DNA from: Candidatus Baldrarchaeum yapensis | GTDB taxonomy: Archaea; Asgardarchaeota; Baldrarchaeia; Baldrarchaeales; Baldrarchaeaceae | Length of the DNA stretch: 32,000 bases | Reading direction: 5' to 3' | NCBI GenBank assembly: GCA_016840465.1 | Contig: JAEOSH010000010.1 | Span: forward strand, 19,544-51,543 | Program-made: the position numbers and the translations under genes | Shown: one piece after another, positions 21,185 through 25,303 of the stretch | Position numbering within the stretch: the first letter of the stretch is position 1 | Layout of the letters: each line of letters begins with the position of its first letter | Notes under the pieces: generated by a model | The model's database searches: none | The model's input: only the letters and a program-made list of their open reading frames with translations | Told to the model about the DNA's origin: nothing

Positions 21185-22081
21185 ATGAGCACCTTCTCGA
21201 CGGTAATAAGGCCAGGTATTCTATTCATCGAGGGAGAGTTTAAAGGAAAATTCCCCTTCTCGAATTCGCTATTGATAAAAGGCAAAAAACGCACAGCACT
21301 TATCGATGCAGGGACTGGCATAAGAGTCATTCAGCACTATAAAGACAAGATCGACGTAGTCGTGCTGACTCACCTCCATCCTGATCACTTCTCATTGAGC
21401 TATCTATTCGAGGGCAAAAGAGTGTACATCCCGGCGGTAGAGTCGCGTTATCGAAGGCTCGAAGATCTGGCACTGCGTTATGTTGGCGAGAAGCTTGCTC
21501 CCATCTGGTTGAGGTACGTTAAGGAAACCATGATGGCGCGGGATCCATATTTCACCGATACCTACGAAGAGGGAGACGTGATAGATCTCGGCAACGTGGA
21601 ATTGCAACCCATTTACACGCCGGGCCACTCGCTTGGTCATCATGTCATCCTCATTGGAGACAAGATACTACACGGAGCCGACATAGACCTTACATCCTTC
21701 GGTCCGTGGTACGGTCACGTTGAGAGCAACATAGACAAATTCCTCGACAGCATAAAGAGGGTTATGCAACTCGATGTCGAGATCTATGTGAGTGGGCATA
21801 AGCGGCCAGTCACCGGTAGGGAGGAGATACTATCGGAGCTTGAAAGGTTCGCGGGGAAGTTTAAGGAAACTGAAGAGAGGATCCTTGAGGCGTTAAGAGA
21901 GCCGAAAAGTGTGGAGGAACTTGTACACATGGGGATAATATATCAGAAAAAACCATATGCGCGGGAACTTCTCGAATACTGGGAAGCAAACATGATAATG
22001 AAGCACTTGGATAGACTTGTAAAGCGCGGACTCGTTAGAACCACCACAAATGGAAAATACATCGCAATAAAGGATCTGTAG
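21185..22081 (+). CDS. Metallo-beta-lactamase-fold hydrolase with a C-terminal winged-helix-like tail
   Basis: Contains VVLTHLHPDHF (HxHxDH), TPGHSLGH and SGHK. The C-terminus is MKHLDRLVKRGLVRTTTNGKYIAIK. Confidence 0.85.
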   Translation: MSTFSTVIRPGILFIEGEFKGKFPFSNSLLIKGKKRTALIDAGTGIRVIQHYKDKIDVVVLTHLHPDHFSLSYLFEGKRVYIPAVESRYRRLEDLALRYVGEKLAPIWLRYVKETMMARDPYFTDTYEEGDVIDLGNVELQPIYTPGHSLGHHVILIGDKILHGADIDLTSFGPWYGHVESNIDKFLDSIKRVMQLDVEIYVSGHKRPVTGREEILSELERFAGKFKETEERILEALREPKSVEELVHMGIIYQKKPYARELLEYWEANMIMKHLDRLVKRGLVRTTTNGKYIAIKDL

Positions 22082-22108
22082 GAAGGAGGGAGTAGTATTT
22101 TGCAATAT

Positions 22109-22135
22109 GATCTGTGGGATCTTTTTTTAGTTTTT
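22109..22135 (+). terminator. Short hairpin plus T7/T5 tracts after the MBL gene
   Basis: GATCtgtggGATC is followed by TTTTTTTagTTTTT, beginning 28 nt after the stop. Confidence 0.5.
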
Positions 22136-22225
22136 ACCAAAGATCATTCTTCTCCTTGCCACCGATGTTCAGGCAATATGTAGGTAACAACCTAAATATA
22201 TTGGAAAGCCCGCTAGCCTTTTGGG

Positions 22226-23734
22226 GTGGAAAATATTTTCGTGAAAAATCTTAGGTGCGTGTCATGCGGGTATGAATTTCCGCTATCGGATACGATACTA
22301 AAATGCCCGCTCTGTGGGTCGAATGTAGAAGTCATGTACGATTATGAGCGGTTGAAAGAAGTATCGAATGAAGGACTCTTCGAAGCCAGTAGGAGTAATA
22401 TATGGAGGTATCGAGCACTTCTGCCAGTGTTCTCTGAAAAGTGTATAGTGTCTTTAGATGAGGGATGGACCCCCCTCTTCGAAGCCAAGAACCTACCCGA
22501 GAGATTAAACGTAAGCTCGAAGCTTATCCTCAAGAACGAAACTATAAACCCTACGGGATCCTTCTTGGATAGGGGGTCGTCCGTACTCGTGAGTAGGTGC
22601 TTGGAACTCGGAGTCAGTGCTATTGCGTGTGTGACCACCGGAAATATGGGCGCATCTCTTTCCGCATATTGCGCCAAGGCATGCATATCCTGCACGAACT
22701 TTATACCCAAACTTGTGGAACTCGGAAAATTGTATCAAACTGTAATATACGGTGGAAAAATAATATGGTGCGAAGATGTGGACGACGCGACCGCGAAGGC
22801 CCTGAAGGCATGCAATAAAGGTGTGTACCCGGCCCTGCCTAACAATCCTATTTTCCTCGACGGCCTAAAAACGACGGCTATCGAAATATGTGAGCAGATG
22901 AACTGGAACGTGCCTAACTTTGTAGTCGTCCCGATAGGTAATGGCGGCCACATAGGGATGATCTGGAAGGGATTCTGGGAAATGATGCAACTAGGGTTCA
23001 CGGATGAGATTCCCAAACTGGTAGGCGTTCAAACTGCCAGATGCGCGCCAGTCATGGAGATCACTGGGGGAATTATGAGAAGGGGGCGTGAAATCAGAAG
23101 TGTGGCGGTTGATATAGCGATCAAGAAACCACTGAATCTCTATCTTGCAGTCAGGGCAATAAGGGAATCAAAGGGGACCGTAATTGCAGTATCGGATGAT
23201 GAGATGATAGAGTCCGTCTCTATACTTGCAAAGAGCGAGGGGATATTCGCAGAACCGGCCGCCGCCTCAACAGTCGCCGCAATAAAGGCCTTGAGTGATG
23301 AGGGGATTATAGAAAGGGGAGATGAAGTTGTTTGCGTTCTGACGGGTGCGGGACTCAAGGACCCGTTCACTGCACGGGAACTGGTTAGGCGGGCAAGAGA
23401 GGTGTGTGGCGTTCTCGGGGATGTGGAGGAGTTTATGGGCTTCAGGAGAATTGGCAGGACGAAAATGCTGATTCTGGAGATATTAAAGGAAAAGGAGAGT
23501 TACGGATATGCTATCTGGAAAGAACTGAGGAGAAAAGGCAGAAGAATAAGCATGCCCACAGTTTATCAGCATCTGCTCGAACTGGAAGCCATGGGGTTGA
23601 TAGAAAGGATTCCCCGCGTAGTCGAGGATAGCAGGGCTGGGAGGAGAAATAAGGTACTTTACAAAGTGACAAAGATAGGGCTTGAAATCTTAGAATCCCT
23701 CCTACGGGGGAGAGCGGGCAATACTAAGGCATAA
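22226..23734 (+). CDS. Threonine-synthase-like (fold-type II PLP) protein lacking the Schiff-base lysine, fused to a C-terminal PadR-type wHTH; probable regulator, not an enzyme
   Basis: It has the archaeal ThrC layout: Zn ribbon [14 protein letters not shown], then [59 protein letters not shown] and LTGAGLKDP. The invariant NPTGSFKDRG instead reads [10 protein letters not shown] (Leu114, codon TTG at 22565-22567). The C-terminal 90 aa, [49 protein letters not shown]...[17 protein letters not shown], are PadR-like. GTG start; a TATA-like ctaaatatatt lies about 30 nt upstream. Confidence 0.8.
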
Positions 23735-23777
23735 TATTGGCAGAAATGCAAATCGCCACCTACTGACGCATAATCTC

Positions 23778-24692
23778 ATGGTGACAGTAATGATTGAGGT
23801 GGGTACTGTACGCGTTAAGAGAGGCTTTGCGCAAATGTGCAAAGGCGGCGTCATAATGGATGTGACAAATGTTGAGCAGGCGCAGATAGCGGAAGATGCA
23901 GGCGCCGTTGCAGTAATGGTCCTAGATAAGCTACCAGCTGATGTTAGAAAGGCGGGTGGGGTTGCGCGTACGGCGAGCCTTAAAATAATAGAGGAGGTCA
24001 TGGATCATGTCACGATTCCAGTAATGGCGAAGTGCAGGATCGGACACGTAGAGGAGGCAAGAGTGCTCGAAGAGTTGGGCGTGGACATGATTGATGAAAG
24101 CGAGGTACTTACTCCAGCAGATGAGAGGCGACACATATGGAAGTGGGACTTCAGGACCCCCTTTGTTAATGGGGCGAGAAATCTGGGAGAGGCGCTTAGG
24201 AGAATAGAAGAGGGCGCCGCAATGATCAGGACAAAGGGGGAAGCGGGGACTGGGAATGTTGCAGAAGCGGTTAGGCACATGAGACTCATGGTTAATCAGA
24301 TAAGGTGGTTAACGGCAATAAGAGATGACCCTTATGAACTACTTAGGGCCGCGCGTAGGATGCGTGTGAGTTTCGCATTGGTCAGAGAAGTTGCGGAGCT
24401 GGGTAGGCTTCCCGTCGTTAATTTTGCAGCAGGCGGAATAGCGACTCCCGCAGATGCGGCATTGATGATGAGGCTCGGAGCAGATGGCGTTTTTGTTGGC
24501 AGTGGTATCTTTAAGAGCGAAGATCCCGAAGAGCGGGCATATGCGATGGTTCTCGCGGTGGCTCACTGGGATGATCCCGAAATAGTCATGGAGGCCCAAA
24601 AGATGGTAAGTGAACAGAAGAGCATGCGTGGCATCGACATAAGGACATTGAGAAAGGAAGAACTTATGCAGATCAGAGGTGCAACCGCGTGA
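23778..24692 (+). CDS. pdxS: Pyridoxal 5'-phosphate synthase, lyase subunit PdxS
   Basis: Contains [96 protein letters not shown] and [11 protein letters not shown]. Confidence 0.95.
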
Positions 24693-25303
24693 TCCGAATA
24701 GGTGTACTCGCGTTACAGGGTGCGGTCCAGGAACACGTCATTGCAACCAGAAGGGCGTTTGACTCGCTGGGAATAAAGGGAGAGGTGACTAGGGTGAAAC
24801 TGCCAAGGAATCTCGAGCACGTGGATGCATTGATAATTCCAGGTGGAGAGTCTACGGTGATCGGCAGGCTCGCTGAGAGGTCAGGACTCCTAGAAAGGAT
24901 ACGTGAGCGGGCCACCGATCAAAACCTTGCAATTATGGGAACATGCGCGGGGATGGTCTTACTGGCAAAGGAAGTAGATGAGAGACATGTGGGTGAGGTC
25001 TCTCAGCCACTTTTGCGCCTCATGGACATCTCCGTAACTAGAAACGCATTTGGCAGACAGAAGGAATCATTTGAGACATTCCTTGAAATACCCGTGATAG
25101 GTCCGGAGCCCTTCAGGGCGGTGTTCATCAGGGCACCCGCCGTTAAAAGAATACTCAGCAATAAAGTTGAAGTTTTAGCAAAACTCGGTGAGGTCCCAGT
25201 AGCGGTGAGACAGGAAAACATGTTAGCCCTCTCCTTCCATCCGGAGCTGACGGATGATCTGCGGTTGCACAAGTACTTTATAGAAATGACTACTGGTGTG
25301 TGA
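24689..25303 (+). CDS. pdxT: Pyridoxal 5'-phosphate synthase, glutaminase subunit PdxT
   Basis: Contains [30 protein letters not shown] (nucleophile Cys), RNAFGRQ and SFHPELT. The GTG start overlaps the pdxS stop (GTGA, 4-nt overlap). Confidence 0.93.

Follow-up and report, generated by a model that had tools for sequence, protein, structure and literature searches.

The closest described counterparts of the proposed regulator reported here are the bacterial MocR proteins, among them PdxR, in which a PLP-binding domain derived from a fold type I enzyme and a GntR-type winged helix share a single polypeptide. MocR proteins retain the PLP lysine. In archaea, the vitamin regulators ThiR (thiamine) and RbkR (riboflavin) contain enzyme-like domains, a vitamin-metabolism domain being joined to a DNA-binding domain in a protein that controls both synthesis and uptake genes. 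Bacterial PdxR regulons comprise pdxST, pdxK, and pdxU, and MocR regulators are reported to be absent from Archaea (PMC5320631). Our search of the literature found no description of a B6 counterpart of ThiR or RbkR in archaea, and no publication on a regulator that joins a threonine synthase (ThrC) fold to a PadR domain, in keeping with the original prediction, which knew of no described regulator of this kind.

Here we describe such a fusion, encoded directly upstream of pdxST in a stretch of Baldrarchaeia DNA of 32,000 nucleotides (the window). We propose, with a probability of roughly 0.7, that it is not a threonine synthase but a one-component transcription factor for vitamin B6 homeostasis, which senses B6 and represses B6 genes. 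The features of the locus are listed in Table 1.

Table 1. Features of the regulator-pdxST locus; coordinates are those of the window.
Feature	Position	Strand	Remark
Inverted repeat with T7 and T5 runs (22122-22135), probable terminator	22107..22147	+	
Candidate promoter/operator of the regulator-pdxST operon	22173..22204	+	degenerate CCTATATATAGG layout
Regulator gene (zinc ribbon, Lys-less ThrC-fold sensor, PadR winged helix-turn-helix)	22226..23734	+	502 aa
N-terminal CxxC...CxxC zinc ribbon (C11, C14, C27, C30)	22256..22315	+	
Fold type II PLP-enzyme (threonine synthase-like) domain, residues 75-374, proposed ligand sensor	22448..23347	+	
Leu114 codon TTG at the catalytic Schiff-base lysine position	22565..22567	+	
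Retained PLP-phosphate-binding glycine loop PIGNGGH, residues 236-242	22931..22951	+	
Flexible linker between sensor and DNA-binding domain, residues 376-407	23351..23446	+	pLDDT <50
PadR-type winged helix-turn-helix, residues 416-489	23471..23692	+	PF03551
Gap between regulator and pdxS, no oligo-T run, no operator	23735..23777	+	43 nt
pdxS, PLP synthase lyase subunit	23778..24692	+	SOR_SNZ, E 8e-101
pdxT, PLP synthase glutaminase subunit	24689..25303	+	SNO, E 1e-58

Domain architecture of the proposed regulator

Pfam places PALP (E 4e-61) and PF03551 (PadR; E 4e-11, 43.2 bits against a cutoff of 27) in the regulator and finds no match to an N-terminal GntR-type winged helix, bearing out the ThrC-like protein fused to PadR that had been read from the sequence. 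An alternative GTG start at 22241, used in the NCBI gene model, gives a protein of 497 residues and matches the N-termini of homologues better than 22226. The cysteines of the zinc ribbon, which gives a weak Zn_ribbon_LysW match in Pfam, are at least 90% conserved across the fusion family, and the same N-terminal ribbon is found in unfused relatives. A Foldseek search with the model of the regulator (whole-model mean pLDDT 85, the PLP-enzyme domain being modelled at high confidence) retrieved the ThrC structures 2zsj, 1uim, and 6cgq at a target TM-score of 0.84, while the PadR domain matches the PadR structures 5zhc and 5dym in the PDB. The PadR domain of the family bears the signature Y-Q-H-L-x-E-L-E-x-x-G-L-I, with Y447, H449, and L450 invariant, and the C-terminal PadR tail is kept in every fusion.

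The enzyme-derived part has the fold of threonine synthase (EC 4.2.3.1; TIGR00260, PRK08197-type), to which its catalytic domain is about 37-40% identical; the two also have in common a zinc ribbon at the N-terminus, a PLP phosphate loop, and a TGxGLKDP motif. Unlike ThrC, the fusion lacks the Schiff-base lysine, has replacements at the substrate-phosphate-binder positions, carries an additional linker and winged helix of about 120 residues, and lies among B6 genes rather than threonine genes. The C-terminal part resembles PadR, LmrR, and Rv3488 in that a C-terminal helix comes after its PF03551 winged helix, and in its association with a candidate palindromic operator. Classical PadR proteins are about 110-180 residues long and bind their effectors either between the subunits of the dimer or in a small domain at the C-terminus, whereas the ligand site of the fusion would come from an enzyme-derived domain of 380 residues.

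Fusions are found elsewhere in archaea, and fusion and lysine loss co-occur across a large archaeal family. Among the best 120 matches of a query from a Thermoprotei member no host is cultured, all being uncultured archaea. The fusions form a clade apart from threonine synthases in a neighbour-joining tree, an indication of monophyly only, as the tree is a rough one built from BLOSUM distances with midpoint rooting and no support values.

Loss of the Schiff-base lysine

Alignment to threonine synthases of known structure (2zsj, 2d1f, and 6cgq) sets Leu114 opposite the lysine of NPTGSFKDRG, the invariant residue whose replacement by leucine had been noted. The leucine codon is two substitutions away from AAA or AAG. 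Across 120 homologues aligned with three genuine ThrC sequences, the column contains Leu (54), Ile (43), Val (13), Met (5), Thr (2), and Asn (2) and no Lys; across 194 distinct fusion proteins it contains Ile (91), Leu (69), Val (21), Met (7), Asn (3), Thr (2), and Ser (1), with Lys in 0/194. By contrast, the lysine is kept in all 60 of the unfused relatives in the genome scan. The change from lysine to a hydrophobic residue far exceeds what chance or sequencing error would produce, and the original prediction was right to discount an error at Leu114. One fusion (L023), found separately from the 194 distinct proteins in a genome locus, does have the Schiff-base lysine.

Both PIGNGGH, which falls opposite the ThrC loop GNAGN in the alignment, and TGAGLKDP (residues 373-380) were located in the regulator as originally described, and N140, P236, G238, G240, and T373-G-x-G-L-K are invariant in the family. 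N87 and T317 are presumably the PLP contacts of ThrC in the T. thermophilus structures, while T88, N154, S155, and R160, in the same numbering, we take to be the residues that bind the phosphate of the substrate, O-phosphohomoserine. The positions aligned to the latter four are replaced across the whole fusion family, by M141, L204, P205, and F210 in the window and by L/F, T/S, P, and F, respectively, in the family at large. Asp/Glu296 is a new residue specific to the fusions. Some lysine-containing relatives also deviate from canonical ThrC at the substrate-binder positions, and part of the remodelling of the pocket may therefore predate the fusion.

NCBI and JGI label the regulator and its homologues as threonine synthase, and profile searches lend this name some support: the score of the protein, 200.8, exceeds the TIGR00260 (thrC) cutoff of 167.1, and NF004170 ('threonine synthase') aligns with it end to end. 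That it is a functional threonine synthase with an additional C-terminal domain is nevertheless scarcely credible. The NF004170 score of 343.2 bits falls below the cutoff of 421, the lysine essential in PLP enzymes is missing from every one of the distinct fusions, four more positions aligned to substrate binders are replaced, no threonine-pathway genes were found nearby, and one MAG encodes both a fusion (L003) and a lysine-containing paralogue (L070).

Alternatively, the ThrC-like domain could be a ligand-free scaffold for dimerisation, with the activity of the PadR repressor governed by some other means, such as the amount of the protein or an interacting partner. The loss of catalytic residues would suit such a role, as would the fact that ThrC enzymes are dimeric and PadR proteins must dimerise. 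We consider it very unlikely, since no variation is seen across phyla in the phosphate loop, in the Asn opposite the O3' contact, or in the Thr opposite the N1 contact, all of which would be superfluous in a scaffold, and since a regulon of B6 synthesis and uptake fits the cofactor of the ancestral fold.

Genomic context of the fusion family

Among 56 evaluable fusion loci, dereplicated at 90%, nine directly adjoin pdxST, the linkage in other genomes that the original prediction called for, and 32 adjoin a gene for an ECF S-component, giving 41/56 together. Neither pdxST nor an ECF S-component gene lies within 10 kb in any of 49 control loci containing lysine-bearing unfused relatives (Fisher p ~1e-16, the controls being mostly bacterial and the loci not phylogenetically independent). 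Linkage to pdxST recurs in several phyla (13/81 lineages) and takes three forms, with pdxST divergent, upstream on the same strand, or downstream on the same strand; no other biosynthetic operon is linked to the regulator. No B6 partner is nearby in 15/56 loci, several of which are without a recognisable operator; in the unlinked loci no neighbour family recurs in more than 2/39 proteins, and no threonine-pathway genes are present. A search of the surroundings of the fusion loci found no recurring threonine, thiamine, or riboflavin genes.

The ECF S-component, which neighbours the fusion in related loci and is absent from the window, matches PF07155 (E ~1e-30) and scores below every NCBIfam cutoff. 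PF07155 also includes riboflavin carriers. A riboflavin reading, with the S-component as a RibU-like protein, was rejected because a search of the PDB with its profile matched PdxU2/HmpT only (4hzu_S, E 3e-31). The HmpT pocket residues E41, H84, Q87, Y120, N140, and Q143 align with D, K, E, Y, N, and Q of the S-component, respectively. PdxU and PdxU2 both belong to PF07155 (PMC9997740), and HmpT carries pyridoxamine (PMC4860826). Based on its similarity to PdxU2, the S-component is predicted to transport a B6 vitamer.

The same target genes could instead answer to a different ligand, either an amino acid or threonine-pathway intermediate bound via resident PLP, much as GabR senses GABA through its resident PLP, or a pyrimidine or thiamine precursor. 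The scaffold does descend from an amino-acid-metabolising enzyme, and the novelty of Asp/Glu296 would fit a new ligand. HmpT-type S-components were first predicted to carry hydroxymethylpyrimidine, a thiamine precursor (PMC4860826), and a gene of the AIR-synthase superfamily (ThiL/HypE-like) is paired with the ECF S-component gene in 8/81 loci. However, the product of this gene falls below the ThiL, HypE, and SelD cutoffs, and its reading as ThiL was rejected. A non-B6 ligand is unlikely given, further, that HmpT itself carries pyridoxamine, that the ThrC substrate-phosphate positions are now hydrophobic, that pdxST is the sole biosynthetic operon linked to the fusions, in all three arrangements, and that genes of the competing pathways do not recur near them. 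A B6 vitamer is the ligand that we favour.

Operon structure and candidate operator

The probable terminator upstream of the regulator has 11-nt arms that are 91% complementary and follows shortly after the stop of an upstream MBL-fold gene (22081); it probably insulates the regulator operon from upstream transcription. The gap between the regulator and pdxS is, as first described, short and free of oligo-T, and a search of it for an operator or a hairpin found neither. Read-through from the regulator into pdxS is likely, and in this genome control of pdxST is probably exerted through its co-transcription with the regulator rather than from a promoter of its own. Both synthase genes score above equivalog-level HMM cutoffs (pdxS: NF003215, 480 bits against 395; pdxT: TIGR03800, 218 bits against 105.6), and the reported GTGA overlap between them is confirmed.

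Upstream of fusion genes, a 12-bp palindrome, CCTATATATAGG, is flanked by a TATA-like box on one side and the start codon on the other, in a layout of TATA-like box, about 8 nt, and palindrome that is conserved in the family. It was recovered in 33/55 loci outside the training set, at weight-matrix scores above the 99th percentile of 1360 control windows, and its end lies a fixed 28-44 nt ahead of the first zinc-ribbon Cys codon. The palindrome was also found, independently, about 70 nt upstream of pdxS in three loci (L116, L132, and L140), homologues with a gap of about 100 nt before pdxS having their own copy inside the gap, and 28-30 nt upstream of the ECF S-component gene in L143 and L023, at a promoter not common to the fusion. 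Radical-SAM and MFS genes bear it too. The GC clamps and dyad symmetry of the palindrome argue for a dimeric factor, although some of the conservation of its TATA-like core could stem from promoter function rather than regulator binding. The original prediction that the regulator controls pdxST and possibly itself agrees with the presence of the palindrome in the regulator's own, the pdxS, and the ECF S-component promoters, to which binding is predicted.

In the window, element A (GCAATATGTAGG, 22173-22184) and element B (CCTAAATATATTGG, 22191-22204) each have three mismatches to CCTATATATAGG, and the best weight-matrix score of 10.8 bits is slightly below the control 99th percentile of 11.3. 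A search of the window for CCTATATATAGG with at most three mismatches gave 16 matches against 12 expected, so the case for the operator rests on its conservation across genomes. With a degenerate operator and no site in the gap, regulation at this locus rests on homology and operon structure. These same observations, and an identity of only about 46% to the closest relatives outside Baldrarchaeia, would be compatible with a gene that belongs to a family of B6 regulators but is decaying or rewired in the window, with pdxST constitutive or under another factor. We judge this quite unlikely: the open reading frame is intact, the family-invariant residues are all present, elements A and B have the same order, position, and spacing as in homologues, and near-identical copies of the regulator occur in several Baldrarchaeia assemblies.

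Proposed mechanism

Because its catalytic lysine is lost, the ThrC-fold domain would form no internal aldimine and perform no catalysis. Its pocket would nevertheless retain the non-covalent contacts to PLP, namely the phosphate loop, Asn to O3', and Thr to N1, and could bind PLP or a related B6 vitamer reversibly, the sensor thus reporting on the free pool. The PadR domain, presumably as a dimer, is proposed to bind CCTATATATAGG, whose TATA-like core lies in or beside the core promoters of pdxS and the PdxU2-like uptake gene. Occupancy of the operator would block TBP, TFB, or RNA polymerase and so result in repression. With the vitamer acting as co-repressor, the vitamer-bound form on DNA would shut off the genes for B6 synthesis and uptake as well as its own. 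In the Baldrarchaeia window, the regulator, pdxS, and pdxT would form a single autoregulated operon driven from about 22173-22225.

The scheme parallels that of PdxR. Both proteins unite an enzyme-derived PLP-binding domain and a winged helix in one polypeptide, both adjoin their targets, often divergently, both appear to be autoregulated, and the predicted regulon of the fusion matches that of PdxR in comprising pdxST and a PdxU-type ECF uptake component. The parts, however, are non-homologous, being fold type II (ThrC-like) and PadR in the fusion against fold type I and GntR in PdxR. The domain order is reversed, with the sensor N-terminal and the winged helix C-terminal in the fusion, and the PLP lysine retained by MocR proteins is lost in the archaeal family. 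ThiR and RbkR, although comparable in design, serve other vitamins with unrelated domains. We propose that the fusion family is an archaeal counterpart of bacterial PdxR, analogous but not homologous to it. The original prediction of PdxR-like logic built from a fold type II scaffold and PadR in an archaeon gains support from the linkage to pdxST and ECF S-component genes (41/56), from which regulation is inferred.

Implications

It seems rather probable that the fusions define an unrecognised B6 regulon across Asgard, TACK, and Euryarchaeota, in which a lysine-less fold type II PLP sensor joined to PadR arose independently of PdxR. This would be a convergence on the design of a dead PLP enzyme with a winged helix, reached with another fold, another DNA-binding domain, and loss of the lysine. 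That loss would be an adaptation by which a covalent cofactor site came to sense the free PLP pool reversibly.

The uniform annotation of the family as threonine synthase, including in the Baldrarchaeia MAG, would then be an error, and metabolic reconstructions may as a result credit uncultured archaea with a threonine synthase that they do not have. The same mislabelling would hide the control of B6 metabolism as well as a likely importer of the vitamin. The literature describes genes for B6 transport and salvage as poorly studied, and a 2023 survey of PLP pathways left out regulators. If the proposal is right, the conserved operator would offer a direct route to the discovery of such genes: CCTATATATAGG could serve as a probe for missing archaeal B6 genes such as the PdxU2-like importer, may also reveal a new AIR-synthase-like vitamer kinase, and would make the radical-SAM and MFS genes that carry it further candidates. 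The fusion family would thereby fill the archaeal gap in B6 regulation across many phyla, Asgard lineages among them.

Domain organisation of the window protein

The regulator gene of this Candidatus Baldrarchaeia (Asgard) metagenome-assembled genome (MAG) encodes a threonine synthase (ThrC)-like PALP domain joined to a PadR-type winged helix-turn-helix (wHTH). AlphaFold models the protein with confidence (mean pLDDT 85), and the model can be superposed on ThrC structures at a target TM-score of 0.84. In an alignment with the solved threonine synthases 2zsj, 2d1f and 6cgq, Leu114 faces their Schiff-base lysine, bearing out the lysine-to-leucine replacement claimed in the original prediction. 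Everything else read there from the DNA was also fully confirmed: the TTG codon, the PadR domain, pdxS-pdxT downstream with a GTGA overlap, and a 43-nt gap upstream of pdxS, in which neither a T-run nor a hairpin was found.

The preceding gene encodes an MBL-fold hydrolase, whose C-terminal ~90 aa have no Pfam match and for which no tie to vitamin B6 genes was seen in other loci. The inverted repeat that follows it, enclosing T7 and T5 runs, is probably an archaeal terminator insulating the regulator-pdxS-pdxT unit.

Features of the regulator-pdxS-pdxT region in the window
Feature	Position	Strand	Detail
MBL-fold hydrolase gene, upstream	21185-22081		Lactamase_B at residues 25-205
Inverted repeat ATGATCTGTGG / CCAAAGATCAT	22107-22147		26 nt past MBL-fold gene stop
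Candidate promoter element GCAATATGTAGG	22173-22184		3 differences from consensus
Candidate promoter element CCTAAATATATTGG	22191-22204		3 differences from consensus
Regulator ORF	22226..23734	+	502 aa
Zinc ribbon, CxxC...CxxC	N-terminus of protein
PALP domain	residues 75-374		E 4e-61 (Pfam)
Leu114 codon TTG	22565-22567
Linker	residues 376-407		low-confidence modelling
PadR winged helix	residues 416-489		E 4e-11, exceeds Pfam threshold
pdxS	23778..24692		equivalog model match above cutoff
pdxT	24689..25303		equivalog model match above cutoff

Loss of the catalytic lysine and remodelling of the pocket

The best 120 database homologs share 39-47% identity with the window protein and come from Bathyarchaeia, Nitrososphaerota, Thermoprotei, Thorarchaeota, Hodarchaeota and Euryarchaeota MAGs. 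According to the precomputed Pfam column, all but one combine PALP and PadR, the exception (the homolog P0074) having PALP only. Alignment of these homologs to three real ThrC proteins gives Leu (54), Ile (43), Val (13), Met (5), Thr (2) or Asn (2) at the lysine column, and never Lys. With a second search added, the column in 194 distinct fusion proteins contains Ile (91), Leu (69), Val (21), Met (7), Asn (3), Thr (2) and Ser (1). Among the proteins of a one-genome-per-species scan, Lys is absent from every one with a wHTH tail of ~105-127 aa and kept in 60/60 unfused relatives, the ThrC-like proteins that lack this tail.

Absence of the lysine holds for 194/194 proteins but not for a Hermodarchaeota fusion (L023:10076-11416), which keeps it within NPTNSFKDRA. 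This is one of three fusion loci that differ from the rest in their shorter tails (97-99 aa); a Bathyarchaeota fusion (L019:9989-11395) has Arg at the lysine column, and the third sequence, L027, is truncated so that it lacks this column. In a rough neighbour-joining tree L023 and L019 form the sister group of the main fusion clade, a topology that fits a single fusion event with the lysine lost soon afterwards, and L023 may represent the ancestral, covalently PLP-bound state. A further locus on a long branch outside the main clade, L012, has Ala at the lysine column and a full-length 127-aa tail. The Bathyarchaeia MAG CAZHMI01 has a Lys-less fusion (L003) alongside an unfused ThrC-like gene (L070) that contains Lys and is itself non-canonical at the substrate positions; the fusion therefore need not be the organism's sole ThrC-like gene.

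Across the family, other residues, mostly hydrophobic, stand at the positions matching ThrC T88, N154, S155 and R160, which we take to be the O-phosphohomoserine phosphate binders. No variation is seen in N140, the P236-x-G238-x-G240 loop or T373-G-x-G-L-K. Judged by these residues, the fusion family has had its chemistry removed and its cofactor pocket kept. Some Lys-containing relatives likewise depart from canonical ThrC at the substrate positions, so part of this remodelling may predate the fusion. The closest bacterial relatives (L025-L080, mostly Acidimicrobiales) make up a large group of ThrC-like enzymes with a zinc ribbon, in which the lysine is kept and the same four positions read L, V, N and Y; these enzymes may be something other than canonical threonine synthases using O-phosphohomoserine.

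Linkage to genes for vitamin B6 synthesis and probable uptake

Fusion loci were collected from a genome scan, six contig look-ups and a metagenome scan queried with the linker and wHTH tail only; there were 112, of which 81 remained once dereplicated at 90% identity. Among the complete MAGs with the fusion are CP070732 and the 1.1-Mb contig Ga0315298_1000001. The linkage to pdxST anticipated in the original prediction recurs: among the 56 evaluable loci (at least 1 kb on both sides), pdxS-pdxT directly adjoins the fusion in nine, and it is adjacent in 13 of the 81 dereplicated lineages. Three arrangements occur: pdxST is divergent, or it shares the strand of the fusion and lies either upstream or, as in the window, downstream. 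A PF07155 ECF-transporter S-component gene directly adjoins the fusion in 32/56 evaluable loci, almost always divergently, leaving 15/56 with neither partner; around the unlinked fusions, neither a recurrent family nor threonine-pathway genes were found. No pdxS, pdxT or S-component gene lies within 10 kb in any of 49 evaluable control loci of Lys-containing unfused relatives (Fisher p about 1e-16, for controls that are mostly bacterial and loci that are not phylogenetically independent).

A profile of 17 archaeal S-components matched only one solved structure, 4hzu chain S (E 3e-31), and did not match RibU, FolT or ThiT at E ≤ 1. 4hzu_S is the pyridoxamine carrier HmpT/PdxU2 of L. brevis (PMC4860826). 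Its six pocket residues are either retained or conservatively replaced in the archaeal family, which by these sequence comparisons is specifically PdxU2-like. The only ECF-type B6 transporters listed in PMC9997740 are PdxU and PdxU2, both PF07155, and bacterial PdxR regulons are reported to comprise pdxST, pdxK and pdxU (PMC5320631). By adjoining pdxST or a PdxU2-like gene, the fusion is associated with the same two kinds of gene that PdxR controls in bacteria.

An AIR-synthase-superfamily protein of ~337 aa is encoded beside the PdxU2-like gene in 8/81 dereplicated fusion loci, usually convergently (for example L082:4365-5387, L027:2009-3019, L134:3183-4196 and L143:509-1558). The pairing holds even where the two genes lie 2.3 kb from the fusion. 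The protein scores below the curated ThiL, HypE and SelD cutoffs, and could be an unrecognised ATP-dependent B6-vitamer salvage enzyme.

A conserved predicted operator

Fusion genes from different phyla share an upstream layout of a TATA-like box (ATATATAAG), about 8 nt and a GC-clamped palindrome, CCTATATATAGG (variants CCTATGCATAGG and CCTATATATCGG), which abuts the start codon. From the end of the palindrome to the first Cys codon of the zinc ribbon the distance is a fixed 28-44 nt. A weight matrix built from 13 sites was applied to 55 dereplicated loci outside the training set; it scored above the 99th percentile of 1360 size-matched control windows in 33 of them and reached at least 15 bits in 29. 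Perfect copies of the operator occur, for example, in L008, L160 and L112.

Strong sites outside the autoregulatory position number only 10 in 842 kb. Three lie about 70 nt 5' of pdxS in loci with the window's gene order (L116, L132 and L140), within a gap of ~100 nt before pdxS. Another lies 28 nt 5' of the S-component gene of locus L143, 2.3 kb from the fusion. A comparable site precedes by 30 nt the S-component gene neighbouring the Lys-containing fusion L023; the two genes are tail-to-tail, so this S-component has its own promoter. The palindrome thus occurs at the regulator's own promoter as well as at target promoters separate from it. It lies downstream of the TATA-like box and ahead of the start codon, or overlaps the TATA position of target genes, a geometry usual for archaeal repressors.

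Further strong sites (17-19.5 bits) occur at L123:6870-6885, L127:847-862 and L123:4372-4387. Two share the promoter layout TTTAAAC-TGT-yGCyTATATATAGG, and lie between two genes on opposite strands, one for a radical-SAM protein and the other for an MFS transporter (L123) or PhzF-like protein (L127); the third precedes a PK_C-like protein of 251 aa. The genes at these sites are possible additional regulon members.

In the window the two candidate promoter elements keep the order seen in homologs; the weight matrix gives 10.8 bits at most, below the 99th percentile of 11.3, and no operator site is present in the short gap before pdxS. Homology and gene layout, rather than a strong window site, make a single regulator-pdxS-pdxT transcript, autoregulated from about 22173-22225, the most economical reading. 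The DNA targets proposed for the regulator are AGCCTATATATAGGCT and, in the window, 22160-22230.

Proposed mechanism and relation to known systems

NCBI labels the window protein "threonine synthase", with a start at 22241. It passes the TIGR00260 thrC cutoff, and its whole length, wHTH tail included, is covered by the 'threonine synthase' equivalog NF004170 of NCBIfam (PRK05638, 442 positions). Unlike threonine synthase, the fusion lacks the lysine, has its substrate-binding positions replaced and scores below the full-length NCBIfam model cutoff, and on these three counts it falls outside the definition of the enzyme. Curated models have probably spread the name onto a non-enzyme family; the architecture is present in databases only as "threonine synthase".

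Nor does the fusion belong to MocR/PdxR, since fold, wHTH type and domain order all differ; MocR regulators are reported to be absent from Archaea (PMC5320631). By its wHTH domain the fusion is of PadR type. It would therefore work like PdxR without being a member of that family. The original prediction knew of no regulator with this architecture, and our search of the openly accessible literature found no account of it or of any archaeal B6 regulator.

The ThrC-fold sensor would bind PLP or another phosphorylated vitamer non-covalently; loss of the lysine would allow reversible cofactor binding, as befits a sensor of the free pool. A regulator dimer would bind the palindrome and repress transcription, and the vitamer, as co-repressor, would turn down synthesis and uptake as well as the regulator itself in a negative feedback. 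That PLP is the exact ligand is about an even call, and the odds for the co-repressor logic are similarly balanced.

Several independent computational lines (family-wide lysine loss, B6-gene linkage and a conserved dyad operator) support the B6-regulator interpretation first proposed from the DNA, and these are established by computation together with the architecture and the retained PLP-pocket motifs. We put the probability that the fusion regulates pdxST and PdxU2-like genes in response to B6 at roughly 0.7. It would be an enzyme-derived vitamin-sensing regulator assembled from non-homologous parts.
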